A stretch of 64,000 bases of DNA, taken from assembly GCA_031266805.1 (NCBI GenBank), contig JAISAH010000084.1, forward strand, positions 4,952 to 68,951, read 5' to 3'. The notes beneath the pieces were generated by a model. That model saw nothing but the letters and a program-made list of their open reading frames with translations, did no database searches and was not told the origin of the DNA. Below are positions 26,208-42,410 of the stretch, one piece after another. Position numbers and translations under genes: made by a program. This DNA comes from Gracilibacteraceae bacterium. GTDB lineage: Bacteria > Bacillota > Desulfitobacteriia > Desulfitobacteriales > Syntrophobotulaceae. Position 1 is the first letter of the stretch, and each line of letters begins with the position of its first letter.

Positions 26208-26735
26208 ATGAATAAACCTGAACACTCACATGAGCATAATCATGAACACTCGCATGAGCATAATCATGGACATTCGCATGAGTGCGGTCATAATCACGAA
26301 CACCCGCATGAGCATAATCATGGGCAGTGCGGTCGCACCCACGCAAGTGTTTATTCTCACGGCCATGGGCATGAACACTCGCACGAACACAGTCATGAGC
26401 ATGAGCATTTTCATGAGCATGACGGCGAACAGCACGCTCACGGGCATAGCCACGCGCACGGGCATGATCACACACACAGCCATGCGCACGACCACGATCA
26501 CGAGCACAAACATGAGGCTGAATCCGAGGAAATAACGCGGATCCGGGCTATGATGAAATATTTGCTGGTCCACAACCAAGAACATGCCGCCGAACTGACG
26601 GATATGGCGAGCGTTTTGCGCGGCGCCGGGCATACGGCGGCGGCGGCCAAACTGACTGACGGCGCCGAGGGACTGAGGCGCGGCAGCGGCGCGCTGGCGG
26701 AGGCGCTGGCGTTACTGGGAGGGGGAGAAGGCTGA
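26208..26735 (+). CDS. Histidine-rich metal-binding protein (CooJ/Hpn-like by composition)
   Basis: About 100 N-terminal residues are almost entirely H-x-H repeats (HSHEHNHEHSHEHNHGHSHECGHNHEHPHEHNH...). A helical C-terminal domain of about 70 aa follows. The DNA is a degenerate tandem repeat of about 24 nt. The stop overlaps the cooT ATG. Confidence 0.8.
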   Translation: MNKPEHSHEHNHEHSHEHNHGHSHECGHNHEHPHEHNHGQCGRTHASVYSHGHGHEHSHEHSHEHEHFHEHDGEQHAHGHSHAHGHDHTHSHAHDHDHEHKHEAESEEITRIRAMMKYLLVHNQEHAAELTDMASVLRGAGHTAAAAKLTDGAEGLRRGSGALAEALALLGGGEG

Positions 26736-26929
26736 TGTGTTTGTCGGCGGTGTATACGACCGAGACGGACGGACAGCGCAATTTGGTGTGCGAGAGCGTC
26801 AGCGAGGTAGACGTAAAAGGGGATACGGTCGTTTTGACCGATATACTCGGCCGGGACGTCACGGTGCGCGGCGTCATCACCAAAATCGACCTTATCAGGA
26901 ATAACATTTTAATAGGAAAACCGGTCTGA
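26735..26929 (+). CDS. cooT: CooT-family nickel-binding protein
   Basis: 64 aa beginning Met-Cys (MCLSAVY...), with the pattern ...V.EV.V.GD.V.L.D.LG....V.G.I..IDL..N.I.I shared with Rhodospirillum CooT. Confidence 0.72.
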   Translation: MCLSAVYTTETDGQRNLVCESVSEVDVKGDTVVLTDILGRDVTVRGVITKIDLIRNNILIGKPV

Positions 26930-26938
26930 TAAAGACGT

Positions 26939-28897
26939 ATGAACCAGCCTGTCCGCACGAAGGAAGAGTGGGCGCGCCTGCATAGCCGGCCTGAGCGCTG
27001 GGGGATGTTGGGCGAAACGGTTCGGGCGGCCTGGGAGCGCAGCGCCGGTTACAATATAGATTTTATGAACGCGCTGCCGAAGAAATTGCCGGCGGCGAAT
27101 TATGAGCAGATCAAACGTCAGACCAAGCGGCTTTTTGTTTATGCCAACAGTGTTTTGGAGCCGTTGGCTCGAAGCGATTTGCTGGAAAATGTTGGCATCA
27201 TCCTGTTTGCTAATAACGGCGCCTTGTTGCGCCTGTACGGCGGCGAGCGTTTTTTGACTTGGGCGGCGGCCAGCCGGATTGAAGCGCGAACCAAGTGGGC
27301 GGAAGATCAGATCGGCGCGAATGTTTTTTCCGTCGGGATGCGTCAAGGCGCTTGCTTGCAGATGTCGGGCTTTGAGCATTACGCCGCTTTTCTCACCGGG
27401 GCCGCCTTTGTGTTCGCCCCGATGCGGCTGAACAACGGCGACATTATGTGCAGCATCGTATTGGCCGCGCCGGTAAAATACGCGAGCGAACTGTCGCCGG
27501 CTCTGGCGGTCTCTATCGTGCGCGGCATAGAACTGCAGCTGTTTTGGTTCACTCAGGTCGATAACACCGCCGACGCTGCCGAGGGTGTCGGCAACATTTC
27601 CCTGGATCAGTCCATCGGCGGCAACCGCATCCTGACTCTTAGCGAGGAAGTGAAAAAGATGCTGTCGCTGCCGCGGCGGGACTATTTTTACGAGGCGCTG
27701 GACGACGTCATCGAGCGAAGGCCGGAAAATAAACAGTTTTGGGATATCATCAACAACCGCGTGCGCGTGAATGAAAAAGCGGTCCAGCTGCTGCAGGGCG
27801 GCAAAAACGTTTTTTTCTATATGAGTACGGCGCCCTATAACGAAGAAGGGTTCCACATCAAGGGCATAAGCGTTTCCATGAATTCGCTCAAACATGTCGC
27901 CAAATTGGTGACGAGAGTCCACGGCGACGCCGCCAGCTACAGTTTTGACGACGTGGTGCATGAGTGCGAGGCGATGGCGGACGTGATCCGCAGCGCTAAA
28001 ATGGCGGCGGCCACGGACAGCAGCATCTTGCTGATGGGAGAAAGCGGAGTGGGAAAGGATGTCCTGGCCCAGGCCATCCACCGGGGCAGCAGGCGCGCCG
28101 CCAGACCGTTTGTGGCCATCAATTGCGCCTCGTTTTCCAAGGATCTGATCGCCAGCGAATTATTCGGCTACGAGCCGGGCGCTTTTACCGGCGCCCGCAA
28201 GGAAGGCAGTATCGGCAAATTTGAGCTGGCTAACACCGGCACGCTGTTTTTGGATGAAATCGGCGATATGCCGCTGGATTTGCAGGCGCTGCTGCTGCGG
28301 ATCCTGGAGGAGCGCAGTTTTCGCCGCGTGGGCGGCAATAATCTCATAGCGACCGATGTGCGCGTTATCACCGCGACCAATAAGAAGCTATGGGAATCCA
28401 TTGAAACCGGCATGTTTCGGGAGGATCTTTTTTACCGCCTGGGCGTCGCGCGCATTCAGATACCTCCTTTGCGCAGCAGAAACTCGGATATCGTCCTGCT
28501 GATCAATCACGCTTTGACCCGCATCTGCGCCCGGCTTGACAAACCGGCGGTCAGCATGGGGGAGGACGCGATCGCTTTTTGTAAGCGTTATACGTGGCCG
28601 GGCAATGTGCGGGAGCTGTTTAATCTTTTGGAAGGCATTATCAGCACCTCCGCCTCGGCGGTCATCAGCGAAGCGGAAATCAGGCGATACCTCGGCGCCG
28701 GTGATTTTGCGGCCGCCGCGCCGCCGCGCTCTTTCCCGCCGGAACGGGAAGATGAGGCGCCCACGCTCTATGACGAGAGACGGGATTTCGCTCAGATGCT
28801 GAAATTATGCCGCAATAATAAGACAAAGGCGGCGCGGAATTTGGGAGTGCCGCTCAGGACGTTTTACCGTAAACTGAAACGATACGGCATGATGTAG
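26939..28897 (+). CDS. Sigma-54-dependent enhancer-binding protein with AcoR/GAF-like sensor domain
   Basis: AAA+ core GESGVGKDVLAQAIH, GAFTGA motif (ELFGYEPGAFTGA), FLDEIGDMPLDLQALLLRILEE. C-terminal Fis-type HTH (NKTKAARNLGVPLRTFYRKLKRYG). No receiver domain. Confidence 0.92.
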   Translation: MNQPVRTKEEWARLHSRPERWGMLGETVRAAWERSAGYNIDFMNALPKKLPAANYEQIKRQTKRLFVYANSVLEPLARSDLLENVGIILFANNGALLRLYGGERFLTWAAASRIEARTKWAEDQIGANVFSVGMRQGACLQMSGFEHYAAFLTGAAFVFAPMRLNNGDIMCSIVLAAPVKYASELSPALAVSIVRGIELQLFWFTQVDNTADAAEGVGNISLDQSIGGNRILTLSEEVKKMLSLPRRDYFYEALDDVIERRPENKQFWDIINNRVRVNEKAVQLLQGGKNVFFYMSTAPYNEEGFHIKGISVSMNSLKHVAKLVTRVHGDAASYSFDDVVHECEAMADVIRSAKMAAATDSSILLMGESGVGKDVLAQAIHRGSRRAARPFVAINCASFSKDLIASELFGYEPGAFTGARKEGSIGKFELANTGTLFLDEIGDMPLDLQALLLRILEERSFRRVGGNNLIATDVRVITATNKKLWESIETGMFREDLFYRLGVARIQIPPLRSRNSDIVLLINHALTRICARLDKPAVSMGEDAIAFCKRYTWPGNVRELFNLLEGIISTSASAVISEAEIRRYLGAGDFAAAAPPRSFPPEREDEAPTLYDERRDFAQMLKLCRNNKTKAARNLGVPLRTFYRKLKRYGMM

Positions 28898-28927
28898 CAA
28901 GCAGGGCCGTTTGAGTCCTAGGCGCTT

Positions 28928-28945
28928 CGCCGCCTGAGCCAATAC
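28928..28945. repeat. Dispersed repeat family 2, copy A (CGCCGCCTGAGCCAATAC)
   Basis: The identical 18-mer recurs at 58960-58977. A GGGACG...CGTCCC hairpin follows. Confidence 0.6.
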
Positions 28946-28990
28946 ACGGGACGTCGAGGACGCCGTCCCTTACGAATACGGGTCTTTCGC

Positions 28991-29046
28991 GGCGCGTTAT
29001 GGCACTATATGGCGCGTTATGGCATGATATTGGCGTGAAATGGCAC
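28991..29046 (+). promoter_or_regulatory. Three direct repeats GGCG(C/T)G(T/A)(T/A)ATGGCA(C/T) at 20-21 bp phasing; candidate enhancer (UAS) for the EBP
   Basis: Copies at 28991-29005, 29011-29025 and 29032-29046, lying 80-135 bp upstream of the -24/-12 promoter. Confidence 0.4.
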
Positions 29047-29125
29047 GGTGTGTTTGTCCTGAGTGTCGTCCGGGGGAAACCTTTGCCTGCGGAGCAGGGG
29101 GCTTTTGAGCGGTGTTTCACAATGT

Positions 29126-29141
29126 TGGCATGAGAATTGCA
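29126..29141 (+). promoter_or_regulatory. Sigma-54 (-24/-12) promoter
   Basis: TGGCAT-GAGAA-TTGCA matches the TGGCAC-N5-TTGCA consensus. It is 85 nt before the first operon gene and directly downstream of an EBP gene. Confidence 0.72.
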
Positions 29142-29225: not shown

Positions 29226-30017
29226 ATGATCACAGTGGGAATCGACAGCGGCAGTCAAAATATAAAAGCGGTGGCGCTGCAGGACGGCGCGGTCGTCGCC
29301 AGAGCCAAGATCCTGGCGGAATTTGACGCGGTGAAAGCGGCGGAAGCGGTTTACGAACTGGTCTTGCGGCAGGCGGGCCTGACTGAGAGCGATGTGGAGG
29401 CGGTGGCGGCGACCGGAGCGGGACGCGCCCTTGTGCCGTTTGCCGTTTTATGTATCAACGAAGTCAGTTCCGCCTCCAAAGGGGCGCGCATGGTCAGGCC
29501 CGGCGCGGAGGTGGTGATCGACCTTGGGGCGGAGAGCAGCCGCGCCATCCGCCTCCAGCCGGACGGCAAGGTCAAAAAATACGAGATCAACGATAAATGC
29601 GCTTCCGGCGCCGGGACGTTCATCGAAACGATGGCCCGCGCCCTGCAGATGGAAATCGAGGACATGGGGCCTTATTCGCTCCGGCATACGCGGGAAGTGC
29701 CCATGAACGCTCAATGCGTCGTTTTCGCGGAATCGGAAGTCGTCTCGCTGATCCATCAGCAAGAGTCCAAGGAAAATATCGCCTACGCCATCCATATGGG
29801 CATCGCCAACCGGGTCGGCGCGCTGTTCCGCCGTCTGGGACTCTCTGACGAACTGGTCCTGATCGGCGGCCCGGCCCTCAATGTGGGTCTGGTCGAATGT
29901 ATGGGCAAGGAATCGGGCCGGAAAATATTCGTGCCCGAGTATCCGGATTTTATCAGCGCTATGGCCGCGGCCGCGGCGGCGGCCGAAAACGCGCGGGGAG
30001 GTGTCGCCGGTGGCTGA
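29226..30017 (+). CDS. BcrAD/BadFG/HgdC-family ATPase (electron-activating component), subunit 1
   Basis: 263 aa: MITVGIDSGSQNIKAV...NDKCASGAGTFIE.... ASKHA fold with cluster-bridging Cys context. Confidence 0.87.
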   Translation: MITVGIDSGSQNIKAVALQDGAVVARAKILAEFDAVKAAEAVYELVLRQAGLTESDVEAVAATGAGRALVPFAVLCINEVSSASKGARMVRPGAEVVIDLGAESSRAIRLQPDGKVKKYEINDKCASGAGTFIETMARALQMEIEDMGPYSLRHTREVPMNAQCVVFAESEVVSLIHQQESKENIAYAIHMGIANRVGALFRRLGLSDELVLIGGPALNVGLVECMGKESGRKIFVPEYPDFISAMAAAAAAAENARGGVAGG

Positions 30018-30921
30018 CGGGCATATCGAGAAAGTAGAATATTGGCGCTGGGAGGAATCTCGGTGGAAAAATCCGGAAATCCCGGACTGGCGCGGCTCTT
30101 TGGTGACGGCGGGCGTAGATATAGGTTCCACCAGCACTCAGGCCGCGATCATGACGGACGGCCAGCTTTACGCTTACGCCAGCATCCGGACGGGTTCCAA
30201 TAGCCCCTCGTCCGCCGTGGACGCCATGAACTGGGCGCTGGAGGGCACGGAGCTGACGCCGGCAGATTTGCACTATACGGTGGGCACGGGCTACGGACGG
30301 GTCAACGTGCCTTTTGCCGACAGCACCGTGACCGAGATCACCTGCCACGCCAAAGGGGCCAACTATATCTACGGGCCGACGGTGCGGACGCTGCTGGATA
30401 TGGGCGGGCAGGACTGCAAGGCCATCCACTGTGACGAAAACGGCGCCGTTACCTCGTTCATGATGAATGACAAATGTGCCGCCGGCACCGGGCGCGGCAT
30501 GGAGGTCATCGCCAATCTGCTGGCCGTCCACGTGGAGGATATCGGGGAGATGTCTTTCCGCATCGACGCCGAGCCGCCGCCGGTGTCCAGCATCTGCGTG
30601 ATTTTCGCCAAAACGGAGGCCACCAACCTGATGCGTTCGGGCTGGTCCAAGGAAAAAGTGCTGGCCGCTTACTGTCACGCGATGGCGCTGCGCGTCGCGC
30701 GTCTGCTGGAGAGAAACGAAATGCAGCTGGATTTTGCCATCACCGGCGGCATCGCCAAAAACAGCGGCGTGGTGAAGCGCATCGAGCGGCTGATCGGCGC
30801 GGAGGCGCTGCGGACCGATTACGACGCGCAGATTGCCGGCGCTCTGGGCGCGGCGCTGATGGGGAAAGCGCTGCACGAAAAAAAGGGCGGTAAGTCCGGG
30901 CGACGAAGGGAGGGCGGCTGA
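30010..30921 (+). CDS. BcrAD/BadFG/HgdC-family ATPase, subunit 2 (distinct paralog with an N-terminal extension of about 35 aa)
   Basis: ...LVTAGVDIGSTSTQAAI...NDKCAAGTGRGMEV...ITGGIAKN. The GTG at 30010 follows GGAGG and overlaps the upstream stop. The exact start is uncertain; 30001 is an alternative. Confidence 0.8.
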   Translation: MADGHIEKVEYWRWEESRWKNPEIPDWRGSLVTAGVDIGSTSTQAAIMTDGQLYAYASIRTGSNSPSSAVDAMNWALEGTELTPADLHYTVGTGYGRVNVPFADSTVTEITCHAKGANYIYGPTVRTLLDMGGQDCKAIHCDENGAVTSFMMNDKCAAGTGRGMEVIANLLAVHVEDIGEMSFRIDAEPPPVSSICVIFAKTEATNLMRSGWSKEKVLAAYCHAMALRVARLLERNEMQLDFAITGGIAKNSGVVKRIERLIGAEALRTDYDAQIAGALGAALMGKALHEKKGGKSGRRREGG

Positions 30922-30923
30922 AG

Positions 30924-31208
30924 ATGATCGCCAATTACGGCTGCGAAGACGGTTCCGGAGTATATTATATCCGGATCGACACGGGAAAATGCGGGGATTG
31001 CCAGCTCCGCGGCTGCGTGGGCGGATGTCCGCGGGAGCTGTTTGTGATAGAGGAGGATGATTGGGGCGACGAGATGGCCGTCGTGCGGGAAGACAGGCGC
31101 CGGACCCTGCAAGCCGCCTGCGCGGCCTGCAAACCCCAGGATCGCCCGCCGGACCCTTTGCCTTGCCAGAGCGCCTGCGGCAGACAGGCGATCGAACACA
31201 GCTGGTAA
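30924..31208 (+). CDS. Small ferredoxin-like Cys-rich protein
   Basis: 94 aa with C-x2-C-x4-C-x3-CP, then CAAC-x11-C-x3-C. Plausibly a 2x[4Fe-4S]-type protein with non-canonical spacing. Confidence 0.55.
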   Translation: MIANYGCEDGSGVYYIRIDTGKCGDCQLRGCVGGCPRELFVIEEDDWGDEMAVVREDRRRTLQAACAACKPQDRPPDPLPCQSACGRQAIEHSW

Positions 31209-31269: not shown

Positions 31270-32058
31270 ATGGACATGAAGACGGAGTACCGGAGCATCA
31301 AGTATGAGACGGCTGACCGCGTCGCCACGGTCACTATGTGCGTTCCGGAAAAGATGAACGCTCTGGACGCGAGACTGGGGGAAGAACTGGCGTCGGCGCT
31401 GGCGCGGGCCAAAGCGGACGCCGCGGTCAAAGTCGTCGTGCTGACTGGGATGGGGAACGCTTTTTGCGCCGGCGGCGACTTGACGGGTTTTCCGGCGCTG
31501 GATCTCCAGACCGCCGCCGAAGGCATCCGTGATTCGGCCCGGTCGCTGGTCGGCGCTTTTACCAAATTGCCGAAACCGATCATCGCCGCGGTCAACGGTT
31601 TTGCCGTGGGGGCGGGATTGTCTCTGGCCCTGATCAGTGACATCGTGCTGGCTTCGGACAAGGCTGTGTTCGGCGCCGCTTTTGTCAATGTGGGCCTGAT
31701 CCCGGACATCGGCTCGCTCTTTTATCTGCCGCGGCTGATCGGGCTGCCCAGAGCGAAAGAACTGGCTTTTACCGGGCGCAATCTCAGCGCGCAGGAAGCT
31801 CTGACGATGGGCATCGTCAACCGGGTGACGGAAAACGACGCGCTGGCGGCGGAGGCGGCGAAACTGGCCGGGAAACTGGCGAGGCAGCCGGCCCTGGCGA
31901 TGGCGCAGGCCAAAGCGCTGCTCCACGCCAGTCTGGAGATCGGCGTCGACGAACTCATCGAGCTGGAGGGCATGGCCCAGGGGATCTGTATGCAGTCGGA
32001 AGATTCCCGTGAAGGCGTCGACGCGTTTTTGCACAAAAGGAAACCAAATTTTAAATAA
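31270..32058 (+). CDS. Enoyl-CoA hydratase/isomerase (crotonase) family protein
   Basis: ...VVVLTGMGNAFCAGGDL...PIIAAVNGFAVGAGLSLAL.SDI.... GAGGAGG lies 8 nt before the ATG at 31270. Confidence 0.88.
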   Translation: MDMKTEYRSIKYETADRVATVTMCVPEKMNALDARLGEELASALARAKADAAVKVVVLTGMGNAFCAGGDLTGFPALDLQTAAEGIRDSARSLVGAFTKLPKPIIAAVNGFAVGAGLSLALISDIVLASDKAVFGAAFVNVGLIPDIGSLFYLPRLIGLPRAKELAFTGRNLSAQEALTMGIVNRVTENDALAAEAAKLAGKLARQPALAMAQAKALLHASLEIGVDELIELEGMAQGICMQSEDSREGVDAFLHKRKPNFK

Positions 32059-32072: not shown

Positions 32073-33212
32073 ATGAGTACGGAAACATTGTTTGAAAAAG
32101 CCGAACTGCGAAATTCCTCCGTGAAGGCCTGGAAAGAGCAGGGCAAAAAAATCATCGGCACGGTCTGCTGTCATGTGCCGGAGGAGATACTGCACGCCGC
32201 CGGCGCGATGCCTTATCGCCTGCGGGCCACGGGAGTCACGGATCTGAGCGAAGGCGACACATGGATGTCCACTTTTACCTGCAGCTACGCCCGCGGGACT
32301 CTGCAGTATCTGATCGACGGAACATTCGACTTCATGGACGGCGTGATTTCTTCGGACGGCTGCCTGATGGCCGGGCGTATTTTCGATAATTGGAAATATG
32401 TGGATGGCAACGCGGAGAAAAAGGAATTCTATTTGAAACAGATCGCGGCCCCGCGCATGAATAACGAAAACGCCGTCAGATATTACCGCGACTATCTGGA
32501 CCAGATGCGGACCGAACTGGGCGCTTATATGGGCGTGGAGATCACCGATGAGAAGATCCGGGCCTCCGTCGCCCTTTACAACGAGACCCGCCGGCTGATC
32601 CGCGCCCTGTACGATCTGAGCAAAAGCGACGCTCCCGTCGTCAGCGGGACCGAGCGCCTGAAACTCATCCTAGCCGCGTCCTCAATGCCCAAGGAAGAAT
32701 ACAATGAGATGCTGAAAGACTTTTTGGCAAGGGCCGGGAGCAGAGCCCCGATCAAGAACTATCGCGCCCGGATCATGCTCGTCGGCAGCGCGCTGGACGA
32801 CCCGGAGTATATCAAAGTCATCGAGGATAAGGGCGGTCTGGTGGTCACTGACGCCCTGTGTTTCGGCACCCGCTATCTCTGGGAGCCGGTCGAGCTGGAA
32901 GGCGGCGACGTCCTGACCTCCATTGCCGCTTCTTACCTGAAACGCCCCGTATGTCCGCGGATGGTGGATCTGCACGACGAGTTCGGGGATCTGATAGTTA
33001 ATTTTTGCCAGGATTTCAAAGTGGACGGCATCATCTACGAGCGCGTCAAATACTGTGAGATCTGGGGCGGCGAGGGTCTGTATTTCGGCGAGCACAAGGG
33101 CATGAAGGAAGCGGACGTCCCGCTGATCTTGCTGGAGCGCGAGGAGATCATGACCAATATCGGCCAGCTGGCCGTGCGCGCCGAAGCGTTTATCGAAATG
33201 ATCGAGAAATAA
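32073..33212 (+). CDS. HGD-D family subunit (BcrC/BzdN or HgdB/HadC-like)
   Basis: 379 aa: ...KIIGTVCCHVPEEILHAAGAMPYRL...; conserved Cys at VCCH, FTCSY, DGCLM and PVCPRM. Confidence 0.85.
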   Translation: MSTETLFEKAELRNSSVKAWKEQGKKIIGTVCCHVPEEILHAAGAMPYRLRATGVTDLSEGDTWMSTFTCSYARGTLQYLIDGTFDFMDGVISSDGCLMAGRIFDNWKYVDGNAEKKEFYLKQIAAPRMNNENAVRYYRDYLDQMRTELGAYMGVEITDEKIRASVALYNETRRLIRALYDLSKSDAPVVSGTERLKLILAASSMPKEEYNEMLKDFLARAGSRAPIKNYRARIMLVGSALDDPEYIKVIEDKGGLVVTDALCFGTRYLWEPVELEGGDVLTSIAASYLKRPVCPRMVDLHDEFGDLIVNFCQDFKVDGIIYERVKYCEIWGGEGLYFGEHKGMKEADVPLILLEREEIMTNIGQLAVRAEAFIEMIEK

Positions 33213-34497: not shown

Positions 34498-35253
34498 ATG
34501 GACAGAGTAAGATCAATAGCGGTGACCGGTAAAGGCGGTACGGGAAAAACCGTGCTGGCGACTTTGCTGATCAGGCTGCTGGCGGAGCGTTTTCCGGGCC
34601 GGGTGCTGGCCATAGACGCCGATTCGGCCATGAGCCTGCCTTATACCTTGGGACTGGAGCTAAAGGGTACGGTGAGCGAGGTCCGGAAGAACATCATCGG
34701 TTCCCGCGAAGCCAAGGAAAAACTAAATGATGGCCCGACCAAGTCCGTGATGCGCGGTATACTCACCAGCGGCGGCGGGTTTGACCTGCTGGTCATGGGC
34801 CGGCCGGAGGAACCCGGTTGTTTCTGCGCCGTGAACGAATTGCTGCGCTATGGGATAGATACGCTGATCACGGACTACGAAGCGGTGGTGATCGACGGGG
34901 AAGCGGGACCGGAGCAGCTGAACCGGCGCGTTCTGAAAAGCATCGACGTCCTGCTGGTGGCGGCGGATATGTCGGCGCGCAGTCTGGAGACGGCGGCCGG
35001 CATCATCCGGGTGGCGAACAGCTATGAAGACGGTCTGCGCGTGGGGCGAGCCGGGCTGATCCTCAACCGGGTGAGGGGCGACCGGCCGGCGGAGGAGGTT
35101 TTGCGGCGGATCGGATTGGAAATTTTTGGAACTTTGCCGGAGGATGATCTGCTGAACGAGTATGACAGGGAAGGTCGCTCGCTCCTGGAACTGCCGCTGG
35201 ATTCGCCCTGTCCGCTGGCGGCGCGGGAGATACTCGACCGGATATATGAATGA
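34498..35253 (+). CDS. CooC/AcsF-type MinD-family metallochaperone ATPase with CxC motif
   Basis: Deviant Walker A GKGGTGKT, the CooC metal-binding CxC in GCFCAVNE, and EAGPEQL (CooC GAGIEHL equivalent). 251 aa. Confidence 0.8.
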   Translation: MDRVRSIAVTGKGGTGKTVLATLLIRLLAERFPGRVLAIDADSAMSLPYTLGLELKGTVSEVRKNIIGSREAKEKLNDGPTKSVMRGILTSGGGFDLLVMGRPEEPGCFCAVNELLRYGIDTLITDYEAVVIDGEAGPEQLNRRVLKSIDVLLVAADMSARSLETAAGIIRVANSYEDGLRVGRAGLILNRVRGDRPAEEVLRRIGLEIFGTLPEDDLLNEYDREGRSLLELPLDSPCPLAAREILDRIYE

Positions 35254-35267: not shown

Positions 35268-36572
35268 ATGCCGGATTGGAAAAAATTTGTTGAAGAGAGA
35301 ACTGTTTCTGTTGAGGAAGCGGCCGCCACAGTCGAGTCAGGCGATCGGATCTGGATGGGCAGCACGATCTGCGTGCCTTACGGCGTGCTGGACGCTCTGG
35401 CGGAGCGTTATGAAGAACTGAGGGACGTGCTTTTGATTGCCAGTATGTATCTGGCGCCGTTTAAGATTTTGAACGATCCCAAATACAAAAAAGCGTTTCA
35501 TACCATGAGCATCTTTCCCAACGTGCTGGAACGCGCGTCCGCCAAAATCGGCACCATTGATTTTCATTCCGTCCCGTACACCTATTGGGAACGCGCGGCG
35601 CAGGAAGTTTACAAAGTCAACTCCGTCATTACGGAAGTCTGTGAGCCGGACGAGGAGGGCTATGTTAATCTGAGCGCCCTGGGCGTAGGTTGGACCCCCA
35701 ATATCATGCGTAACGCCCCCAAACTTATCGCGGTCATAAACAAATACAATAAGCCGATCCGGGGCGACGCCGTCAAGGTCAAAGTTCCGGTCAGCCGCTT
35801 TCAGTACTTTGTCCGTCACGATCACCCGCTTCCTTCCCTGCCCACCAACCCGCCGGAGGAAATTGACGAGAAGATCGCTTCGTATATTTTACCGCATATT
35901 AATCAGGGAACCACGTTCCAGATCGGCATGGGCGGTTTGGGCGACAGTATCGGCCTGGGTTTGCGGGAAAAGAAGGGCTTGACCATTCGCACCGAGATCA
36001 TGACCAACTGCATGGTGGATTTGCTGGAAAGCGGCTCTGTGGATCATATCTACGCGGCGGGCGCGTTTGGCGATCAGCGTTTGTATGATATATTCGACGA
36101 TCCGCGAGTGACGTTCAGCGACTGCTGGGATCAGCTGGAGCCGGAATCCATCGGCAAAGTACCCAATTTTGTCTCGATCAACGCCACGATGATGACGGAT
36201 ATCATCGGCCAGTGCTGCTCCGAGGCGATCGGCGTCACTCAGTATTCCGCCATGGGCGGGCAGATCGACTTTGTGCGCGGCGCGGCTAAATCCAGAGGCG
36301 GCAAATCATTTATGTGTCTGCGCTCCACCCGGAAGGACAAGGAAGGCAAAGTCCATTCCAACATTGTGGCCAAACTTCCGGAAGGTTCCATTGTCAGCAC
36401 GCCGCGCTATGACGTCATGTATCTTGTCACTGAATACGGCGTCGCCGACGTATTCCTGCGCAGCAATAAAGAGCGGATCAAAGCCATCATCAGCATCGCG
36501 CATCCTGATTTTCGCGAAGAGCTCAAAGCCCAGGCCATCGCCCAAGGCAATATCTTCGCGGACGATTTTTGA
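35268..36572 (+). CDS. Family-I CoA-transferase (acetyl-CoA hydrolase/transferase, 4-hydroxybutyrate / butyryl-CoA:acetate type)
   Basis: ...INATMMTDIIGQCCSEAIGVTQYSAMGGQIDFVRGA.... GGAGGA lies 8 nt before the ATG at 35268. Confidence 0.82.
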   Translation: MPDWKKFVEERTVSVEEAAATVESGDRIWMGSTICVPYGVLDALAERYEELRDVLLIASMYLAPFKILNDPKYKKAFHTMSIFPNVLERASAKIGTIDFHSVPYTYWERAAQEVYKVNSVITEVCEPDEEGYVNLSALGVGWTPNIMRNAPKLIAVINKYNKPIRGDAVKVKVPVSRFQYFVRHDHPLPSLPTNPPEEIDEKIASYILPHINQGTTFQIGMGGLGDSIGLGLREKKGLTIRTEIMTNCMVDLLESGSVDHIYAAGAFGDQRLYDIFDDPRVTFSDCWDQLEPESIGKVPNFVSINATMMTDIIGQCCSEAIGVTQYSAMGGQIDFVRGAAKSRGGKSFMCLRSTRKDKEGKVHSNIVAKLPEGSIVSTPRYDVMYLVTEYGVADVFLRSNKERIKAIISIAHPDFREELKAQAIAQGNIFADDF

Positions 36573-36591: not shown

Positions 36592-37725
36592 ATGTACGAT
36601 TTGACACAGGAAGAGCAGCTCATCATCCAGAGCGTGCGCGAGTACGCGGAAAACGTCATGGCCCCGGCGGCCAAGGAAGCCGACGTCACGGGCGAGTTTC
36701 CCTGGGAGGTGATAAACAAGGGGATCGAGCTGGGGCTGCACGCCCTGTCGATCCCGGAGGAATACGGCGGCCCCGGTATGTCGGCCCTGATGTCGGCCGT
36801 CATATCCGAGGAATTATCCAAGGCCTGCGCCGGTATGGCCACGACGCTGGGGGCCACGGGGCTGTCCTGCTACCCGGTTTTGATCGCGGGTACGGACGAG
36901 CAGAAAAAACTTTATTTTGACATCATTCAGTCCGGAAAACTGGGCGCTTTTTGCCTGACCGAGCCCGGCGCCGGTTCCGACTCCGGCTCGGTGGCCGCGA
37001 CCGCCGTGCGCGAAGGCGGCGAGTATGTGCTGAACGGCAATAAGACATTTATTACCAACGGCGCCGTGGCCAGCGTTTACACGGTGTTTGCCACGGTGGA
37101 CCGCGCCAAGGGTTTGAAGGGACTGAGCGCTTTTATCGTGGAGCGTGACCGGGCCGGCGTCAGCGTGGGCAAAGAAGAAAACAAGATGGGCATCCGCGCC
37201 TCCAACACCACGGACGTGATTTTCACGAACGTGCGGATACCGGCGGGCCATCTTCTCGGCAAAGAAGGCGACGGATTCAAGATCGCCATGAAAACGCTGG
37301 ACTCCTCCCGCGCGGGCGTAGGGGCCCAAGCCGTGGGTATATGTCAGGCGGCGCTGGAAGCTTCCATCCGCTACGCGAACGAGCGCAAGCAGTTCGGCGC
37401 GCCTATCTCCGCCAACCAGGGCATCCAGTTCATGCTGGCGGATATGGCTATCCAGACGGAGGCGGCCAGAGCGCTGGTGCGTCACGCCTGCCGCCTGCAG
37501 GACGCCGGTCAGCCTTACGGCAAGGAAGCGGCCATGTGCAAGACCTTTGCCGGCGACACCGCCATGAAAGTGACGACCGACGCCGTGCAGATATTCGGCG
37601 GTTACGGCTACAGCCGCGATTACCCGATCGAAAAACTGATGCGCGACGCGAAGATCATGCAGATTTTTGAGGGCACCAATCAGATCCAGCGGGTCGTCGT
37701 CGCCGGCCATATACTGAGACCATAG
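36592..37725 (+). CDS. Acyl-CoA dehydrogenase (Bcd/AcdB-like)
   Basis: MYDLTQEEQLIIQSVREYAE...CLTEPGAGSD...ERKQFG...IFEGTNQIQR. The ORF-track N-terminus is read-through from the previous gene frame. Confidence 0.92.
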   Translation: MYDLTQEEQLIIQSVREYAENVMAPAAKEADVTGEFPWEVINKGIELGLHALSIPEEYGGPGMSALMSAVISEELSKACAGMATTLGATGLSCYPVLIAGTDEQKKLYFDIIQSGKLGAFCLTEPGAGSDSGSVAATAVREGGEYVLNGNKTFITNGAVASVYTVFATVDRAKGLKGLSAFIVERDRAGVSVGKEENKMGIRASNTTDVIFTNVRIPAGHLLGKEGDGFKIAMKTLDSSRAGVGAQAVGICQAALEASIRYANERKQFGAPISANQGIQFMLADMAIQTEAARALVRHACRLQDAGQPYGKEAAMCKTFAGDTAMKVTTDAVQIFGGYGYSRDYPIEKLMRDAKIMQIFEGTNQIQRVVVAGHILRP

Positions 37726-37747: not shown

Positions 37748-37805
37748 AGAAACGGCGGGAAAGAAGGGGCGCGCGCCGCTCCTTCGCCCTGCCGCGAGGA
37801 GTATT

Positions 37806-38573
37806 ATGAAGATCATTGTTTGTTATAAATGGACTTTGGACGAAGCGGATATTCGGGTCGACGCCGCCACGCGGGCGGTATTGAAAGAGCGGGCCAAGTA
37901 CCGGATCAGCCCCTATGACCGCAACGCCGTGGAATGCGGCGTGCGCCTCGCGGGAAAGAGCGGCGGCGAAGTCGTGGCCCTGAGCGTGGGTACAGCCGAA
38001 TTGGGAAATTCTGCCAAAGATATTCTCTCCCGCGGCGTCACGCGGCTGGCCTGGCTCGGCTGCCAGGAATTAGAAGACGCGGACGCGGCCGGCACGGCCC
38101 GTGCGTTAGCCGCCGCCGCGCGTAAAATCGGCGATTATGACCTTATTGTTTGCGGCGAGGGTTCCAGCGACAGCTATTCCCAGCAGACGGGCCCGCGCCT
38201 GGCGGAACTGCTGGATATTCCCGTCGTCACCTGCGCCAGTGAAATATCCCTGGACGGGAGCAGACTCACGGTGAAACGCAAACTGGAAGAAGGTTTTGAA
38301 ATAACGGAAACGACGCTCCCTGCTCTGATCACGGTGCTGCCGGATATCAACGAACCGCGCATCCCCGGGCTCAAAGAGATATTGGGGGCGAGCAAAAAAC
38401 CGGCGGAACGGTTTTCAGCGGAGGATCTGGGACTGGACCCGGAGACGCTCAAACCGCTGGCGCGCCGGGACAGCCTGCTGGGCACGGCGACGGACCGCCG
38501 CCGGATCGTGCTGAAAGGGGAGGGCGCGGCGGCGGAACTTTTAACTATTCTGAAACAGGAAGGTTTTTGCTGA
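37806..38573 (+). CDS. etfB: Electron transfer flavoprotein beta subunit
   Basis: MKIIVCYKWTLDEADIRV...ISPYDRNAVE...VCGEGSSDSYSQQTGP... Confidence 0.92.
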   Translation: MKIIVCYKWTLDEADIRVDAATRAVLKERAKYRISPYDRNAVECGVRLAGKSGGEVVALSVGTAELGNSAKDILSRGVTRLAWLGCQELEDADAAGTARALAAAARKIGDYDLIVCGEGSSDSYSQQTGPRLAELLDIPVVTCASEISLDGSRLTVKRKLEEGFEITETTLPALITVLPDINEPRIPGLKEILGASKKPAERFSAEDLGLDPETLKPLARRDSLLGTATDRRRIVLKGEGAAAELLTILKQEGFC

Positions 38574-38592
38574 AAAAGGAGGTGATCGGGAC

Positions 38593-39507
38593 ATGGCGGA
38601 TTTTTGGGTGATCGCGGACAAGCCGGGCGTCGCCTGTGAACTGCTGGCGTGCGCCAAGGAGCTGGTCCGGGGCGAAACGCTCGTATGCCTGACCGGTGAT
38701 CAGGAAACGGCGGCGGAAGCGGCCGCGTGCGGCGCGGATCGCGTCGCCTTGTTTGAGGGCGGGGCGCGGCCGGAATCATATGTGGCCGATTGGAGCGAGA
38801 AAGCGCGGCGGGAGCAGCCGGCGGCCATTTTGCTGGGGGCCGGCCGGCGGGACAAGGAGATCGCCGCCCGGCTGGCGGCGCGGCTGGAGGCCGGACTCAT
38901 TTCCGACTGCGTGAAACTGGAGCGCGGTCAGGGCGGTTTTTACTCTGAGCGCTATATGTACGGCGGTCTGTGTTTGGCCGGGGAAACGACCGCACGGACT
39001 CCCTTCATGGCGACGATGGCGGCGAGGGGGACCGAGCCTCTCCCGGCGGGCGCCGCGGCGCCGGTGGAAAAAACGGCGGCGGCGCGGGAGGATCCGGTCA
39101 AACTGGTGGAGCTGCAGCCTCATCAGAGCGCCTCGAATCTCATGTCCGCCAAAGTGATAGTCTGCGTGGGCCGCGGCCTCGCGCAAAAAGAAGATCTAAA
39201 GCTGGCTGAGGATCTGGCGCGGGCTCTGGGCGGCGAAGTGGGCTGCACCCGGCCTGTGGCGGAAGAGCGCCACTGGTTGCCGGAGGAAAGCTATATCGGC
39301 ATAACCGGGAAAAAACCGGCGCCGGACCTATATCTCACCTTGGGCGTTTCCGGCCAGATCCAACATTTGTCAGGCGTGCGCGACAGCAAGTTCATCGTGG
39401 CGGTGGAAAAAAACGAAACCGCGCCGATCGCGGAATCAGCCGACTACACGGTCGTCGGCGATCTGTACGACGTCGTGCCGCGGCTGCTGGCGGGACTCAA
39501 GGCGTGA
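38593..39507 (+). CDS. etfA: Electron transfer flavoprotein alpha subunit
   Basis: ...VIVCVGRGL...GCTRPV...ITGKKPAPDLYLTLGVSGQIQHLSG...IVAVEKNETAPI.... Confidence 0.92.
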   Translation: MADFWVIADKPGVACELLACAKELVRGETLVCLTGDQETAAEAAACGADRVALFEGGARPESYVADWSEKARREQPAAILLGAGRRDKEIAARLAARLEAGLISDCVKLERGQGGFYSERYMYGGLCLAGETTARTPFMATMAARGTEPLPAGAAAPVEKTAAAREDPVKLVELQPHQSASNLMSAKVIVCVGRGLAQKEDLKLAEDLARALGGEVGCTRPVAEERHWLPEESYIGITGKKPAPDLYLTLGVSGQIQHLSGVRDSKFIVAVEKNETAPIAESADYTVVGDLYDVVPRLLAGLKA

Positions 39508-39555
39508 AACGCCGCGCTTTGGCCTGACGGCGCGCCCGTGAAGGAGGAGACGAGT

Positions 39556-41136
39556 ATGTTTGCGCAGAATAAGGTTGTTGATCTGGGGCGGTTCCGAGCG
39601 ACCTGCTCCGGCAGGAGGGAAGCTGTTTGCGATTTTGACACCGGACGGCGCTACACATTTGCCGAGCTCGACCGGCGAGCGGACAGCATGGCCGCGTTTC
39701 TGACCGAGGTGACCGGTCTCCGCGCCGGCGACCGCGTGGCGTTTTGCTCGGAAAACAACGTGGCCTTCCTTGACGCTTTTTTGATGTCCTATAAAACCGG
39801 GATCATCATTACTTCTTACAACTGCATGATGGGGAAAAAAGAGCTGCTCAGCCTTGTCGCGCAGGAAACGCCCAAAGTGGTTTTTTATTCCGGCGACAGA
39901 CGCGGCGTCATGGAACCTTTCCGGACGGACGGGACGGAGAGGGAGTATGTGGCCATTCGCGGCGAGGCGGACGAGCGGGACCGGTATGCTTATGAAAACG
40001 TGATCAGCTACCGCCCCGCCCAGGCCGTTCATTATGAAACGCCGGAATATGAGGATATCCAAATGCTGATCCACACCGGCGGCACGACCGGCCGGCCCAA
40101 AGCGGCGATGATGAGTTATCGCGCCTTGCTGTGCAACGCCGTCAGTTCTATTCTGACGGTGGGCGTCAGCGAGCGCGACTGCCAGCTGCAGCTGCTGCCG
40201 TTTTTTCACACCGCCGGCTGGAATTCCCTGATGCTGCCGGTTTTTGTGGCCGGAGGCCGAACCGTCTACACCTCCGAATTTGAGGCGGGCAAGGTTTTGC
40301 GCGCCGTCGCCGCGGAACAGCCGACGGTCTGTATCGGGGTGGAGACCATGTACAAACGTTTGGCCGACCACGCGGATTTTCCGGCCGTCGATCTGTCGAG
40401 CTTTCGCTGGATGGTCAACGGAGCGGCGCCGATTTCCCGGCAGACGCTGGAAACCTATTGGCGGAAAAGGGTAAAACTGATCAACGCCTACGGAATGACG
40501 GAGATCGGACCGGAAAACCTGGTGCCGCCCGTGGACGCCATGACGTTGGAGGAAATACGGGACAAGTGGGAATCCGTGGGCAGGGCCATGCTGTTTAACC
40601 AGATGAAAATAATCGACGAAGAAGGGCGGGAAGCGCAAAGCGGCGAGCGGGGGGAGATGCTCTTCCGCGGCCCGCTGACTTTTTCCGGTTACTGGCGGAA
40701 CGAGGAACAGACCGGGAGCGTGGTGAAAAACGGCTGGATCCATACGGGAGATATAGCCTATTGTGACCCGGACGGGTTTTACTATATCTGCGGCCGCAAG
40801 AAAAATATGTTCATATCGGGGGGAGAGAACATTTATCCCGTGGAGATCGAATACGCCCTGGCCGGACATCCGGCGGTGGATTTCGCCTGTGTTATCGGGG
40901 TGGCGGACGAACAGTGGGGCGAGGTCGGCAAAGCCCTGATCGTCCTGAAACCGGGGGCGGCGGCGACAGAAAACGAGCTGCGGCGCCTGGTCAAAGAGGA
41001 ATGCACCAGCATCAAAGTTCCCAAATATATCCAATTTGTGGATAAAATCCCCCGCACTTCGGTCGGCAAATTAGACATGACAGAAATCCGCCGCCTCTAT
41101 GGATCATGTTCAGGGCGTCCCCCAGACGAATCTTAA
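39556..41136 (+). CDS. AMP-forming acyl-CoA ligase
   Basis: AMP-binding motifs IHTGGTTGRPKAAM, YGMTE, WIHTGDIAY, and PRTSVGKLD near the C-terminus. AGGAGG precedes the ATG at 39556. Confidence 0.88.
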   Translation: MFAQNKVVDLGRFRATCSGRREAVCDFDTGRRYTFAELDRRADSMAAFLTEVTGLRAGDRVAFCSENNVAFLDAFLMSYKTGIIITSYNCMMGKKELLSLVAQETPKVVFYSGDRRGVMEPFRTDGTEREYVAIRGEADERDRYAYENVISYRPAQAVHYETPEYEDIQMLIHTGGTTGRPKAAMMSYRALLCNAVSSILTVGVSERDCQLQLLPFFHTAGWNSLMLPVFVAGGRTVYTSEFEAGKVLRAVAAEQPTVCIGVETMYKRLADHADFPAVDLSSFRWMVNGAAPISRQTLETYWRKRVKLINAYGMTEIGPENLVPPVDAMTLEEIRDKWESVGRAMLFNQMKIIDEEGREAQSGERGEMLFRGPLTFSGYWRNEEQTGSVVKNGWIHTGDIAYCDPDGFYYICGRKKNMFISGGENIYPVEIEYALAGHPAVDFACVIGVADEQWGEVGKALIVLKPGAAATENELRRLVKEECTSIKVPKYIQFVDKIPRTSVGKLDMTEIRRLYGSCSGRPPDES

Positions 41137-41159
41137 AATTTAGGAGGTAACTGATAATT

Positions 41160-42410
41160 ATGGCGCAAAACGGTAAAGGAATCTATTTCGGATGGTATAT
41201 TGTTCTGACTTGTTTTTTGCTGATGGCGCTGGCTTACGCGCCCAGTACGACGCTGGTCGGGCAGTTTCTGGTCCCGATGGCGACGGATTTTGATATAAGC
41301 GTAACCGTTTCCTCAACGATCGTGACGATCGGTATGCTGGCGGCGATGATCGCCTCGCCCATCGCCGGAAAACTGCTGACCAAATACGGCATACGCAAAC
41401 TCGTAGTGGCGATGCTGCTCATCAGCGCCGTCAGCAACGCCGGTATGTGTTTTGCCCCCAAATTTGTCTTGATCAACATTTTTGCCGCTTTCCGCGGCGT
41501 CGCTCTGGCTTTTGTCGGGATGGTGCCCATTTCCATGATGGTCATGACTTGGTTCGGCAAGAGCGCGCAGGGCCGCGCCATGGCCTTTGCCACTATCGGC
41601 AGCGGTATAGGGGCCATGGCGGTCAGCCCCCTTTTGGCGGTCATCATCGCGGATATCAGCTGGCGTTATGGCTATCTGCTGTTCGCCGTCCTCAGTTTGA
41701 TCTGCGTGCCGCTGGTTATGGCGACATTCGCCCCGTCTCCGGCGGCTAAGGGGTTGACCCGTCTGGGCGACGATCCCGGCGCTCAGGCGTCAGGCGCGCC
41801 GCTTACCGGCATGACCGGCGGCGAAGCCATGAAAAGCGGTATGTTCTGGATGGTGCTGCTCGGTTTCATTTTTGTCTCCGGCGTCTGCCAGACCTGGGTG
41901 AATAACGCGCCGGGTTTTTACAGCGGCAAACTGGGCCTCACGGCCATCATGGTTGGCACTCTGATCGCGGTCACGGCTCTGACCTTGACTTTGGGCAAGA
42001 TCGGGCTGGGCATATTCTGCGACAAATTCGGCGTCAAACTCGGTTTTCTGGTCAGCGTCGCCTGCCTGGGCGTCACCTATGCGCTGGGTATCGTGGGTGA
42101 GGTCGGCGTTGTCGTCAGCATGGGCGTTGTTTGCGCCGTCGTCATGGGTCTCGGCCAATCCAGCCTCAATATCACCATGCCGCTGGTGGTCAACCAGATC
42201 TGCGGCAATAAAGATTACGGCGTCTGTATGGGTTATGTGCAGGCCGGCACGGCCATCGGCGCCGGGTTTCTGCCCCTGGGGACCACGATCTTTCTCGATC
42301 AGACCGGCAATTACGCCACGACTTTCGTTATCGCCGGCGCGTTGGCGGTCGCGGCTATCGGCCTGATATTCGGCGCCTACGCGCTGCACGGAAAAAAAGT
42401 CACCATTTGA
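41160..42410 (+). CDS. MFS transporter
   Basis: 416 aa with about 12 predicted hydrophobic spans. Strong RBS (TAGGAGG). Confidence 0.85.
   Translation: MAQNGKGIYFGWYIVLTCFLLMALAYAPSTTLVGQFLVPMATDFDISVTVSSTIVTIGMLAAMIASPIAGKLLTKYGIRKLVVAMLLISAVSNAGMCFAPKFVLINIFAAFRGVALAFVGMVPISMMVMTWFGKSAQGRAMAFATIGSGIGAMAVSPLLAVIIADISWRYGYLLFAVLSLICVPLVMATFAPSPAAKGLTRLGDDPGAQASGAPLTGMTGGEAMKSGMFWMVLLGFIFVSGVCQTWVNNAPGFYSGKLGLTAIMVGTLIAVTALTLTLGKIGLGIFCDKFGVKLGFLVSVACLGVTYALGIVGEVGVVVSMGVVCAVVMGLGQSSLNITMPLVVNQICGNKDYGVCMGYVQAGTAIGAGFLPLGTTIFLDQTGNYATTFVIAGALAVAAIGLIFGAYALHGKKVTI

Follow-up and report, generated by a model that had tools for sequence, protein, structure and literature searches.

A candidate CODH-type maturation set encoded with an ATP-driven benzoyl-CoA reductase-like enzyme

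Accessory proteins of the carbon monoxide dehydrogenase (CODH) type that are encoded next to an enzyme of another family raise the question of which client they serve and which metal they handle. Herein, we analyzed a stretch of 64,000 nucleotides from a Gracilibacteraceae bacterium (contig JAISAH010000084.1, positions 4,952 to 68,951, assembly GCA_031266805.1; "the window" below), in which positions 26208-42410 hold a tightly packed block of genes that all lie on the + strand. A regulatory unit, consisting of genes for a His-rich protein, a CooT-family protein, and a sigma-54 enhancer-binding protein (the activator), is followed by a 13-gene operon in the order BzdP, BzdQ, ferredoxin, crotonase, N, O, CooC-like, CoA-transferase, acyl-CoA dehydrogenase, EtfB, EtfA, AMP-forming ligase, and MFS transporter, where N and O are the two HGD-D subunits of an enzyme of the benzoyl-CoA reductase/2-hydroxyacyl-CoA dehydratase (BCR/HAD) family. 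Every gene named in a preliminary description of this DNA was found in its place on the + strand. Our best reading is that the operon, under sigma-54 control, serves the catabolism of a carboxylic acid by way of its CoA thioester; the acid is probably aromatic or alicyclic.

The preliminary description had proposed that the block encodes all three classes of CODH accessory proteins and that the BCR/HAD-family enzyme is their sole candidate client. The first claim held in part: a CooC-type ATPase, a CooT protein, and a His-rich protein are all present, but the last is CooJ-like in composition only. The second is supported, since Pfam scans of 30 further large open reading frames (ORFs; 1.7-62 kb of the window) revealed no CODH, acetyl-CoA synthase (ACS), hydrogenase, or urease. 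The BCR-like enzyme together with its dedicated CooC-type set points to an undescribed, probably nickel-dependent enzyme branch. Judging from the protein families involved, we regard the case for nickel, or a similar metal, being inserted into this enzyme through the chaperone set as evenly balanced. A search of the available literature found no publication connecting CooC or CooT with BCR/HAD enzymes, in agreement with the earlier statement that no described example was known. Context studies centred on CODH would miss the BCR-linked set, because they start from cooS.

The CooC-type ATPase and its tie to the HGD-D pair

The CooC-like gene begins 8 nt past the second HGD-D gene. Its product has a deviant Walker A motif, GKGGTGKT, at residues 11-18, the core of which was invariant in 21 aligned homologues. 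Cys108-Phe-Cys110 aligned with the CxC motif (CYC) of C. hydrogenoformans CooC1 (PDB 3kje), and this CxC was invariant in 95 of 95 CooC-like orthologues. CooC1 (3kje) was by far the best solved relative (8.3e-17), the next being a ParA (5.8e-05); the ATPase also gave weak Pfam matches to Fer4_NifH and NUBPL/ParA. The spacing of 8 nt and the alignment to CooC1 thus bear out the proposal that a CxC ATPase of the CooC type sits directly after the two HGD-D subunits.

For a forward test of this pairing, the alignment of CooC-like homologues was scanned against one genome per species, and the resulting 61 loci were annotated with the window proteins. The informative genome loci were the 48 in which the CooC-like gene had at least 1.3 kb of upstream DNA. 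The CooC-like gene was directly downstream of an O-type HGD-D gene in 46 of these 48 loci (45 scored by script, and L041, where the O gene was seen by tblastn), the exceptions being L038 and L059. The commonest gene order was BzdP-BzdQ-ferredoxin-(crotonase)-N-O-CooC-like. The loci spanned four phyla (Bacillota, Desulfobacterota, Nitrospinota, and Chloroflexota), across which the identity of the CooC-like protein fell to 44-50%. Their hosts were Oscillospiraceae, Lachnospiraceae, Eubacteriaceae, Family XIII, Negativicutes (including Sporomusa silvacetica), Desulfovibrio, Syntrophobacter, Nitrospinota, Dehalococcoidales, and Anaerolineales. The Firmicutes among them came from anaerobic digesters, rumen, and termite gut, and beta-oxidation-type genes adjoin the clusters.

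Altogether, the pairing of a CooC-like gene with a BCR-like enzyme recurred in more than 100 loci with no CODH seen alongside, and CODH was absent from the recurrent neighbours in approximately 140 genome and metagenome loci. The other recurrent neighbours were a fused 3-hydroxyacyl-CoA dehydrogenase/crotonase, thiolase, CoA-transferases, acyl-CoA dehydrogenase with Etf, LuxR-type regulators, and ligases. The co-occurrence of the HGD-D pair with the CooC-like gene, which the preliminary description had put forward as a check, therefore turned out positive and stronger than expected. Conserved synteny in 46 of 48 loci, together with the lack of CODH as a recurrent neighbour, likewise supports its suggestion of a maturation set dedicated to the BCR/HAD enzyme.

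These results bear on whether the chaperone genes are merely parked beside this operon while their true client is a known nickel enzyme from another part of the genome, such as CODH/ACS or hydrogenase. Acetogens have CODH/ACS, and at least one host belongs to an acetogen genus (Sporomusa silvacetica). It is also known that 85 of 111 CooT homologues came from proteomes that contain CODH as well (PMC6006190). However, chance adjacency would not persist in 46 of 48 loci across four phyla, nor would it survive repeated rearrangement of the gene order. CODH-linked maturases usually lie in the cooS operon (PMC13056359), whereas neither the scanned ORFs of the window nor the recurrent neighbours included a CODH. 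We consider parked chaperones very improbable.

An exhaustive search of 1.84 billion representatives yielded 147 clusters (50% identity) at E<=1e-30, nearly all with a motif of the MGRPEGPGC[YF]C type. By average-linkage clustering, the BCR-linked sequences (90 from the loci and three representatives) formed one tight group with a p-distance of at most 0.55. CooC1 was approximately 30% identical to all of these. In public annotations the CooC-like genes are labeled 'CO dehydrogenase maturation factor' or 'AAA family ATPase'. The CooC-like protein of the window was 100% identical to a public protein from a Gracilibacteraceae metagenome-assembled genome. As a separate observation, four loci carry a second, distant CxC ATPase (approximately 31% identical, motif GEGCACP) directly upstream of BzdP, so that two CooC-type genes surround one enzyme.

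Catalytic subunits and small metal-handling proteins

The best solved relative of the N subunit was BzdN of the BzdNO structure (8s02_B, 4.9e-51). Cys 32, 70, 97, 263, 294, and 328 of the N subunit aligned with the BzdN cysteines and were invariant in 42 orthologues. BzdN holds an [8Fe-9S] double cubane through six Cys (Fuchs et al. 2025, PMC11971306), and the N subunit is predicted to carry the same type of cluster.

The O subunit was only weakly similar to BzdO in sequence (2e-10), but its AlphaFold model (pLDDT 88.8) superposed on HadB, MbdO, and BzdO at a TM of about 0.8 with approximately 20% identity. BzdO binds a [4Fe-4S]-OH2 cluster through Cys95, Cys128, and Cys380, and Glu65 and His131 are its acid/base groups (PMC11971306). 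Cys131 of the O subunit aligned with BzdO Cys128, and Cys102 and Cys362 would be the equivalents of BzdO Cys95 and Cys380, so a single [4Fe-4S] cluster at the substrate pocket is predicted. Ser134 aligned with the catalytic His131 of BzdO. In 163 O sequences (that of the window and 162 from loci), this position varied among Ser, Ala, Gly, and Thr, whereas the pattern [D/E]73, C102, C131, C216, D295, H329, H359, C362, and H364 was nearly invariant. The only strong departure was the O gene of L059, which is 29% identical.

Four residues of this pattern deserve attention. Cys216 sits in a conserved R-x3-P-x-P loop in which BzdO, HadB, and DCCP have Ala or Ser. His329, His359, and His364 were invariant in 42 adjacent orthologues and in a 43-sequence alignment, and His359 and His364 flank Cys362. 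Asp295 is not specific to O, because it is also conserved in N. In a profile-profile alignment of O with N (probability 97.9), C102, C131, and C362 of O fell on C70, C97, and C328 of N, and the positions of N C32, C263, and C294 were taken in O by Gly54, Gly298, and Ile328, the last lying beside His329. The O subunit would thus have lost the distal sub-cluster, as BzdO did, and the vacated cavity would be lined by a clade-specific Cys and three His. Cys216, His329, His359, and His364 may bind an additional metal, or they may take part in catalysis on a different substrate.

By homology, the enzyme works like a four-subunit, Bzd-type reductase that is driven stoichiometrically by ATP. It shares with the class I Bzd-type BCRs (BzdNOPQ of Aromatoleum and MbdONPQ of Thauera chlorobenzoica) two distinct BcrAD_BadFG ATPases, a dedicated ferredoxin, a six-Cys N subunit, a three-Cys O subunit, and crotonase and beta-oxidation-type enzymes nearby. 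The Q-like ATPase passed the NCBIfam TIGR03192 equivalog cutoff (382.1 versus 380.2 bits). Both ATPases retain invariant cysteines, Cys125 and Cys164 of the BzdP-like one being invariant in 60 orthologues. In the ferredoxin, which gave no significant Pfam match, C23, C26, C31, C35, C66, C81, and C85 were invariant and C69 was present in 56 of 57 orthologues; because of these eight conserved Cys, it probably carries two [4Fe-4S] clusters. Its gene was placed between BzdQ and the N subunit in most loci.

Unlike the Bzd-type enzymes, however, the N and O subunits stayed far below the equivalog cutoffs of BzdN and BzdO (N, 185 versus 453.8 for TIGR03190; O, 39 versus 448.6 for TIGR03191). Considering these scores and the replacement of the catalytic His131, the enzyme is not a benzoyl-CoA reductase proper. 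The O subunit further differs from BzdO by its clade-specific Cys216, His329, His359, and His364. 2-Hydroxyacyl-CoA dehydratases have one homodimeric activator and a beta subunit that carries [4Fe-5S] instead of a double cubane. Identity as such a dehydratase was rejected as well, given two different ATPases and a ferredoxin, an N subunit with six invariant Cys as in BzdN, and scores far below the HadB and HadC equivalog cutoffs. DCCP/DCCP-R has the same fold and ATP-driven electron delivery, but DCCP possesses two identical catalytic subunits and a single ATPase type, and its physiological role has yet to be found (PMC7317905). The DCCP literature examined mentions no accessory genes of the nickel type.

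Another difference from the Bzd-type systems is that one ATPase module can go with several N/O pairs. In L004, L014, L071, L077, L079, and other Oscillospiraceae-type loci, a single BzdPQ-ferredoxin module has as many as three N/O pairs in tandem; orphan pairs lie elsewhere on the contig, and the downstream region holds two to three CoA-transferase genes in tandem. Such loci suggest that substrate-specific catalytic modules share one electron-activating module. A role in breaking down or reducing plant-derived acids anaerobically is probable for these enzymes.

The CooT protein of the window matched PF10133 at 1.2e-18 (67.6 bits versus a cutoff of 27) over 59 of the 60 profile positions. Its membership rests on Pfam, because a PDB sequence search gave no match. 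Cys2, the nickel ligand in R. rubrum CooT (PMC6006190), was present in the window protein and in all 16 copies inspected from the loci. CooT genes occurred in 17 related loci: 7 genome and 9 metagenome loci (found by a hidden Markov model built from the first matches) and L143 (by Pfam annotation). They took seven different positions relative to the operon. CooT lay ahead of the activator (window and L001), of BzdP (L143), or of the ferredoxin (L099); after BzdQ (L135), the CooC-like gene (L034 and L069), or a CooC-like-DUF8180 pair (L105 and L110); or further downstream, past a crotonase or thiolase (L043, L045, L051, L055, and relatives).

The His-rich protein contains 45 His in 175 residues, 42 of them within the first 104. 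The scans against Pfam and NCBIfam profiles, with a Pfam set that lacks PF26551, gave no match; the name DUF8180 for its C-terminal domain comes from the precomputed Pfam assignment PF26551. A homologue search with this domain, limited by a word prefilter, retrieved a single protein. No PDB chain matched it at E<=10, in a PDB set for which the presence of a CooJ entry was unverified. In CooJ the His tract lies in the C-terminal domain (PMC6006190). Homology to CooJ was rejected, as the His tract here is N-terminal, the C-terminal domain is DUF8180, and no solved structure matched. DUF8180 recurred in seven loci (L001, L045, L051, L055, L105, L109, and L110). It stood immediately ahead of CooT in five cases (window, L001, L055, L105, and L110). 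Most copies carry a His tract, whereas those of L105 and L110 have none, and the L110 copy is fused to DUF3842.

In two loci N, O, CooC-like, DUF8180, and CooT were contiguous. This arrangement resembles cooCTJ of Rhodospirillum rubrum, where a CxC SIMIBI ATPase, a Cys2 protein of the CooT family, and a His-rich protein are likewise encoded with the presumed client; the order of the three genes here is CooC-like, DUF8180, CooT. The differences are that the client belongs to the BCR/HAD family instead of being a CODH, with the CooC-like gene adjoining the HGD-D pair, that the ATPase is approximately 30% identical to CooC1 and forms its own clade, that the His-rich protein is not CooJ, and that CooT and the His-rich protein are optional.

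A fourth type of gene, for a His-rich repressor of the CsoR/RcnR family, was found in 35 loci (29 genome and 6 metagenome) and was absent from the window. It was directly past the CooC-like gene in 32 of the 35 and past CooT in L045, L051, and L109. The repressor matched PF02583 at 3.2e-25, and its best solved match was the nickel sensor InrS of Synechocystis (5fmn, 6e-18). A conserved HPHVH motif holds the His that aligned with InrS residue 21, which we take to be the InrS nickel ligand His21, and the H-C-H-C fingerprint (HxH...C...H...C) was kept in 35 of 35 repressors. InrS controls nickel export. Like InrS, these repressors have a His-rich N-terminus, but they lie inside a catabolic enzyme operon, and their metal specificity is a prediction.

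Two further kinds of gene were noted around these accessory genes. A DUF3842 protein recurred with them in three loci: past the CooC-like gene (L036), in the fusion to DUF8180 already mentioned (L110), and ahead of CooT (L143). It may be a further accessory component. In L142, a BCR-like cluster that includes a CooC-like gene is followed, approximately 3-4 kb downstream, by genes for a Fer4-type protein, HypA, and a cobW/HypB-type GTPase (14337-16438), so that nickel chaperones of another type also lie in the vicinity of this enzyme. One O-type gene of L142 is split into three short HGD-D fragments (6829-7901) and is probably a pseudogene.

A proposed metal site and its alternatives

Aromatoleum BzdNO made alone in E. 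coli acquired both its [8Fe-9S] and its [4Fe-4S]-OH2 cluster (PMC11971306). Because the canonical enzyme thus assembles its clusters without a maturase, a dedicated CooC-family ATPase points to an extra metal in the enzyme studied here. A non-iron metal is favoured, since four recurring nickel-associated types of protein (the CooC-like ATPase, CooT, DUF8180 with or without a His tract, and the InrS-like repressor) converge on the operon in several gene orders. To our knowledge, bzd and mbd clusters encode no dedicated maturase.

The proposed mechanism would run as follows. The pair of BzdP- and BzdQ-like ATPases, fed by the dedicated ferredoxin, would send low-potential electrons on to the N subunit. 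The His-rich DUF8180 protein and CooT would serve to buffer nickel, or a thiophilic divalent metal like it, and to hand it over, and a dimer of the CooC-like protein would spend ATP to load this metal into the O subunit, at or beside the [4Fe-4S] cluster. The metal site would be the cavity of the lost distal sub-cluster, with the clade-invariant Cys216, His329, His359, and His364. A single CooC-like protein could serve the several paralogous N/O pairs of a genome. In the window, both small metal proteins would be expressed with the activator from a sigma-70-type promoter, and the activator would then switch on the enzyme operon; in lineages with the InrS-type repressor, expression may be tied to metal supply. 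The specific form of this proposal, in which Cys216, His329, His359, and His364 bind a nickel ion that is part of, or adjacent to, the [4Fe-4S] cluster in the O-subunit active site, and a dedicated CooC/CooT/DUF8180 pathway installs it, is put forward tentatively, as possible rather than probable. A precedent for inferring nickel from co-encoded chaperones is the putative isoprene reductase operon of Acetobacterium wieringae, for which a new nickel enzyme was proposed because its Fe-S oxidoreductase, which had no known nickel requirement, is co-encoded with nickel chaperones and co-occurs with them (PMC10134865). The chaperones there are HypA/HypB, and the enzyme family and the reaction also differ.

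Several points weigh against a nickel site. Every step that involves nickel is drawn from protein families. The CxC at the dimer interface could hold an Fe-S cluster or zinc rather than nickel, the extra invariant Cys and His could be merely catalytic residues for a different substrate, and CsoR-family sensors with the H-C-H-C fingerprint are not assignable by sequence to nickel over copper or cobalt. CooT and DUF8180 accompany a minority of the loci (17 and 7 of approximately 140). The co-occurrence of CooT and His-rich genes with the HGD-D pair, expected from the preliminary description, was therefore seen in part: both recur, but in this minority. The O subunit of L059 lacks the Cys/His pattern and still has a CooC-like gene nearby.

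In a reverse test, metagenomes were scanned with the O-subunit alignment and the clade motifs GHVGCKHT and PM[IV]H[GA][AS][STA]GP. Among the 67 O genes with enough downstream DNA, 30 had a CooC-like gene directly downstream. The remaining 37 included 21 that were followed by another N gene or BzdP (multi-pair clusters) and 12 without a recognised downstream gene; many of these 12 look like orphan pairs, and several of the contigs hold a full cluster elsewhere. L066, L067, and L132 run from O into a CoA-transferase gene and have no CooC-like gene in cis, which also weighs against the proposed mechanism. Seen from the CooC-like gene, the association is very strong; seen from the enzyme, it is looser. 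From this arrangement, we infer that each genome region has a single CooC-like gene and a single BzdPQ-ferredoxin module, which serve several N/O pairs.

An alternative that fits one copy per BzdPQ-ferredoxin module, instead of one per N/O pair, is that the CooC-like ATPase is a working partner of the enzyme, that is, an additional ATP-dependent subunit for electron transfer, gating, or assembly with a cluster or metal at its interface, while the nickel-type genes form a separate layer of regulation or homeostasis. The position directly after the catalytic subunits is strictly conserved, and NifH-type proteins couple ATP hydrolysis to electron transfer (PMC6006190). However, MbdONPQ and BzdNO were solved without such a subunit, the closest solved relative is a metal-insertion ATPase, and some members of the clade have no such gene in cis. 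We regard a working partner as quite improbable.

The other alternative is an enzyme that holds no nickel and whose iron-only cofactor is matured or repaired by the CooC-like ATPase, alone or together with the small proteins. The ATPase might then supply Fe-S clusters, fuse them, or use ATP to assist folding, in the manner of NifH or Mrp/NBP35. SIMIBI ATPases with cysteines at the interface can bridge a [4Fe-4S] cluster, which agrees with the weak Fer4_NifH and NUBPL/ParA matches, and the client does hold an unusual [8Fe-9S] site. CooC has itself been proposed to act first as a folding chaperone of the CODH active site (PMC6006190), and most loci with a CooC-like gene have neither CooT nor a His-rich gene. 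On the other side stands the assembly of both BzdNO clusters in E. coli with no dedicated factor, and iron alone does not account for why CooT, His-rich DUF8180, and InrS-type sensors keep turning up in these operons. An iron-only role is unlikely, in our judgment, although it deserves serious consideration.

Only about nine nickel enzymes have been characterised (PMC6006190). If nickel is in the active site, the enzyme would be a categorically new nickel enzyme, whose Ni-Fe-S cofactor would be of a new type and would operate in the very low potential range of ATP-driven Birch-type chemistry; alternatively, maturases of the CODH type would have a new job in Fe-S cofactor assembly. Either outcome changes the annotation of these families. 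The proposal is directly testable, as the operon is also present in a cultured isolate whose genome is complete, Desulfitobacterium dichloroeliminans LMG P-21439. Its locus L139 (CP003344.1 742747-763511) is a near-complete counterpart of the window operon and contains the activator, BzdPQ, ferredoxin, crotonase, N, O, CooC-like, a second N/O pair, CoA-transferase, fused dehydrogenase/hydratase, thiolase, and ligase genes. No CooT or His-rich gene was found within 10 kb of it. An IS66 element lies just upstream.

Locus layout, transcription, and surroundings

The features of the block, with two types of gene from related loci, are listed in Table 1.

Table 1. Coordinates of genes and sequence elements in the window and of two accessory genes in related loci
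Feature	Position	Strand	Basis
Sigma-70-type extended -10 element TGTTATAAT	26146-26154	+	Direct sequence reading
Perfect 8-4-8 palindrome TTGAGTATcagtATACTCAA, candidate operator ahead of the His-rich gene	26159-26178	+	Direct sequence reading
His-rich protein, 175 aa	26208-26735	+	Translation; N-terminal His tract and C-terminal helical DUF8180 domain of ~65 aa with HNxxHA motif
CooT-family small metallochaperone, 64 aa, begins Met-Cys-Leu-Ser	26735-26929	+	PF10133
Sigma-54 enhancer-binding protein (activator), 652 aa, uncharacterised N-terminal sensor region	26939-28897	+	Sigma54_activat 2.9e-65, AAA_lid_14, HTH_8
Repeated GCGCGTTATGGCA-type motifs	~28990-29055	+	Likely activator-binding site
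Sigma-54 -24/-12 promoter TGGCATGAGAATTGC	29126-29140	+	85 nt ahead of BzdP start
BzdP-like ATPase subunit, electron-activating module	29226-30017	+	BcrAD_BadFG 5.2e-42; acyl-CoA dehydratase activase domain TIGR00241
BzdQ-like ATPase subunit	30010-30921	+	BcrAD_BadFG 7e-57; TIGR03192 (Bzd-type subunit Q)
Dedicated ferredoxin, 94 aa, eight conserved Cys	30924-31208	+	Cys conservation; position
Enoyl-CoA hydratase/isomerase (crotonase)	31270-32058	+	ECH_1 2.5e-64; start from public gene call
HGD-D N-type subunit	32073-33212	+	HGD-D 3.6e-82
HGD-D O-type (substrate-side) subunit	33237-34490	+	HGD-D 1.1e-60
CooC-family ATPase	34498-35253	+	Walker A GKGGTGKT; motif MGRPEEPGCFCA
CoA-transferase, acetyl-CoA hydrolase/transferase family	35268-36572	+	AcetylCoA_hyd_C 2.9e-50; public gene call
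Acyl-CoA dehydrogenase	36592-37725	+	Three Acyl-CoA_dh domains; public gene call
Electron-transfer flavoprotein, EtfB (37806-38573) and EtfA (38593-39507)	37806-39507	+	ETF, ETF_alpha
AMP-forming acyl-CoA ligase	39556-41136	+	AMP-binding 2.8e-66, AMP-binding_C; public gene call
MFS transporter, probably for substrate uptake; final operon gene	41160-42410	+	MFS_1 3.1e-37
Second CxC ATPase	L043 4768-5532; L093 3945-4784; L094 4030-4794; L096 4029-4793		
DUF3842 protein	L036 10767-11027; L110 5335-5901; L143 3985-4419		

The start of CooT overlaps the stop of the His-rich gene by one base, and the activator begins 9 nt after CooT; given this spacing, co-transcription of the three genes, as had been proposed, is plausible. 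The palindrome lies 5 nt past the -10 element of this unit, and its core had a single mismatch-free occurrence in the window. It is a candidate operator for some repressor. An attempt to assign it to a named regulator failed, because the sole comparable locus, L001, in which the palindrome is conserved, is too closely related to be informative.

The activator is similar along its full length to DhaR-type activators but scores below the NCBIfam equivalog cutoff. A gap of 328 nt, which holds direct repeats and the -24/-12 element, separates the activator unit from the enzyme operon. The repeats, of a GTTATGGCA/ATATGGCG-type motif, are likely activator-binding sites. The number of sigma-54 patterns within the window was not above chance, and the promoter call therefore rests on its position and on its conservation in D. 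dichloroeliminans, whose orthologous operon has a similar promoter, TTGGCATGAAAATTGCT, and a similar upstream repeat array (L139 4360-4420). With a Sigma54_activat AAA+ domain and an HTH in the activator and a -24/-12 promoter ahead of BzdP, the earlier assignment of the enzyme operon to sigma-54 control is well supported. Scans for terminators and sigma-70 consensus sequences yielded little beyond direct sequence reading.

Just past the block, at 42438-43239 on the - strand, is a cadC-like gene for an ArsR-family regulator with a CVC motif and an N-terminal CDC. It is followed by a 130-aa ORF in which an HMA domain (CCANC) is joined to what appears to be the C-terminal membrane end of a P-type ATPase; it looks like what is left of a cadA gene after an internal deletion. 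Upstream of the cadC-like gene, near 43325-43353, stands a perfect TTGACA-17-TATAAT promoter. These two genes were considered as members of the system and rejected, as they look like a cadC gene and a truncated cadA remnant with its own promoter.

On the other side of the block, positions 13725-25949 hold a separate catabolic cluster of 46-51% GC on the - strand, except for a LysR regulator gene on the + strand (19572-20576). The cluster encodes AtuA and a ferredoxin-like partner, a metallo-beta-lactamase-fold protein, an NMT1_3-type binding protein, a DctM-family transporter, a thiamine-diphosphate enzyme, the A and B subunits of a CoA-transferase, thiolase, and aldehyde dehydrogenase. The GC content is 61-67% in 1-13000, where histidine-biosynthesis and leuA genes lie, versus 46-51% in 14000-26000, and this sharp shift suggests horizontally acquired DNA or an assembly join. 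Further downstream, a 1972-aa ORF (45508-51426, + strand) with cell-wall-binding (CWB2) and Listeria-Bacteroides-type repeats presumably encodes a surface protein.

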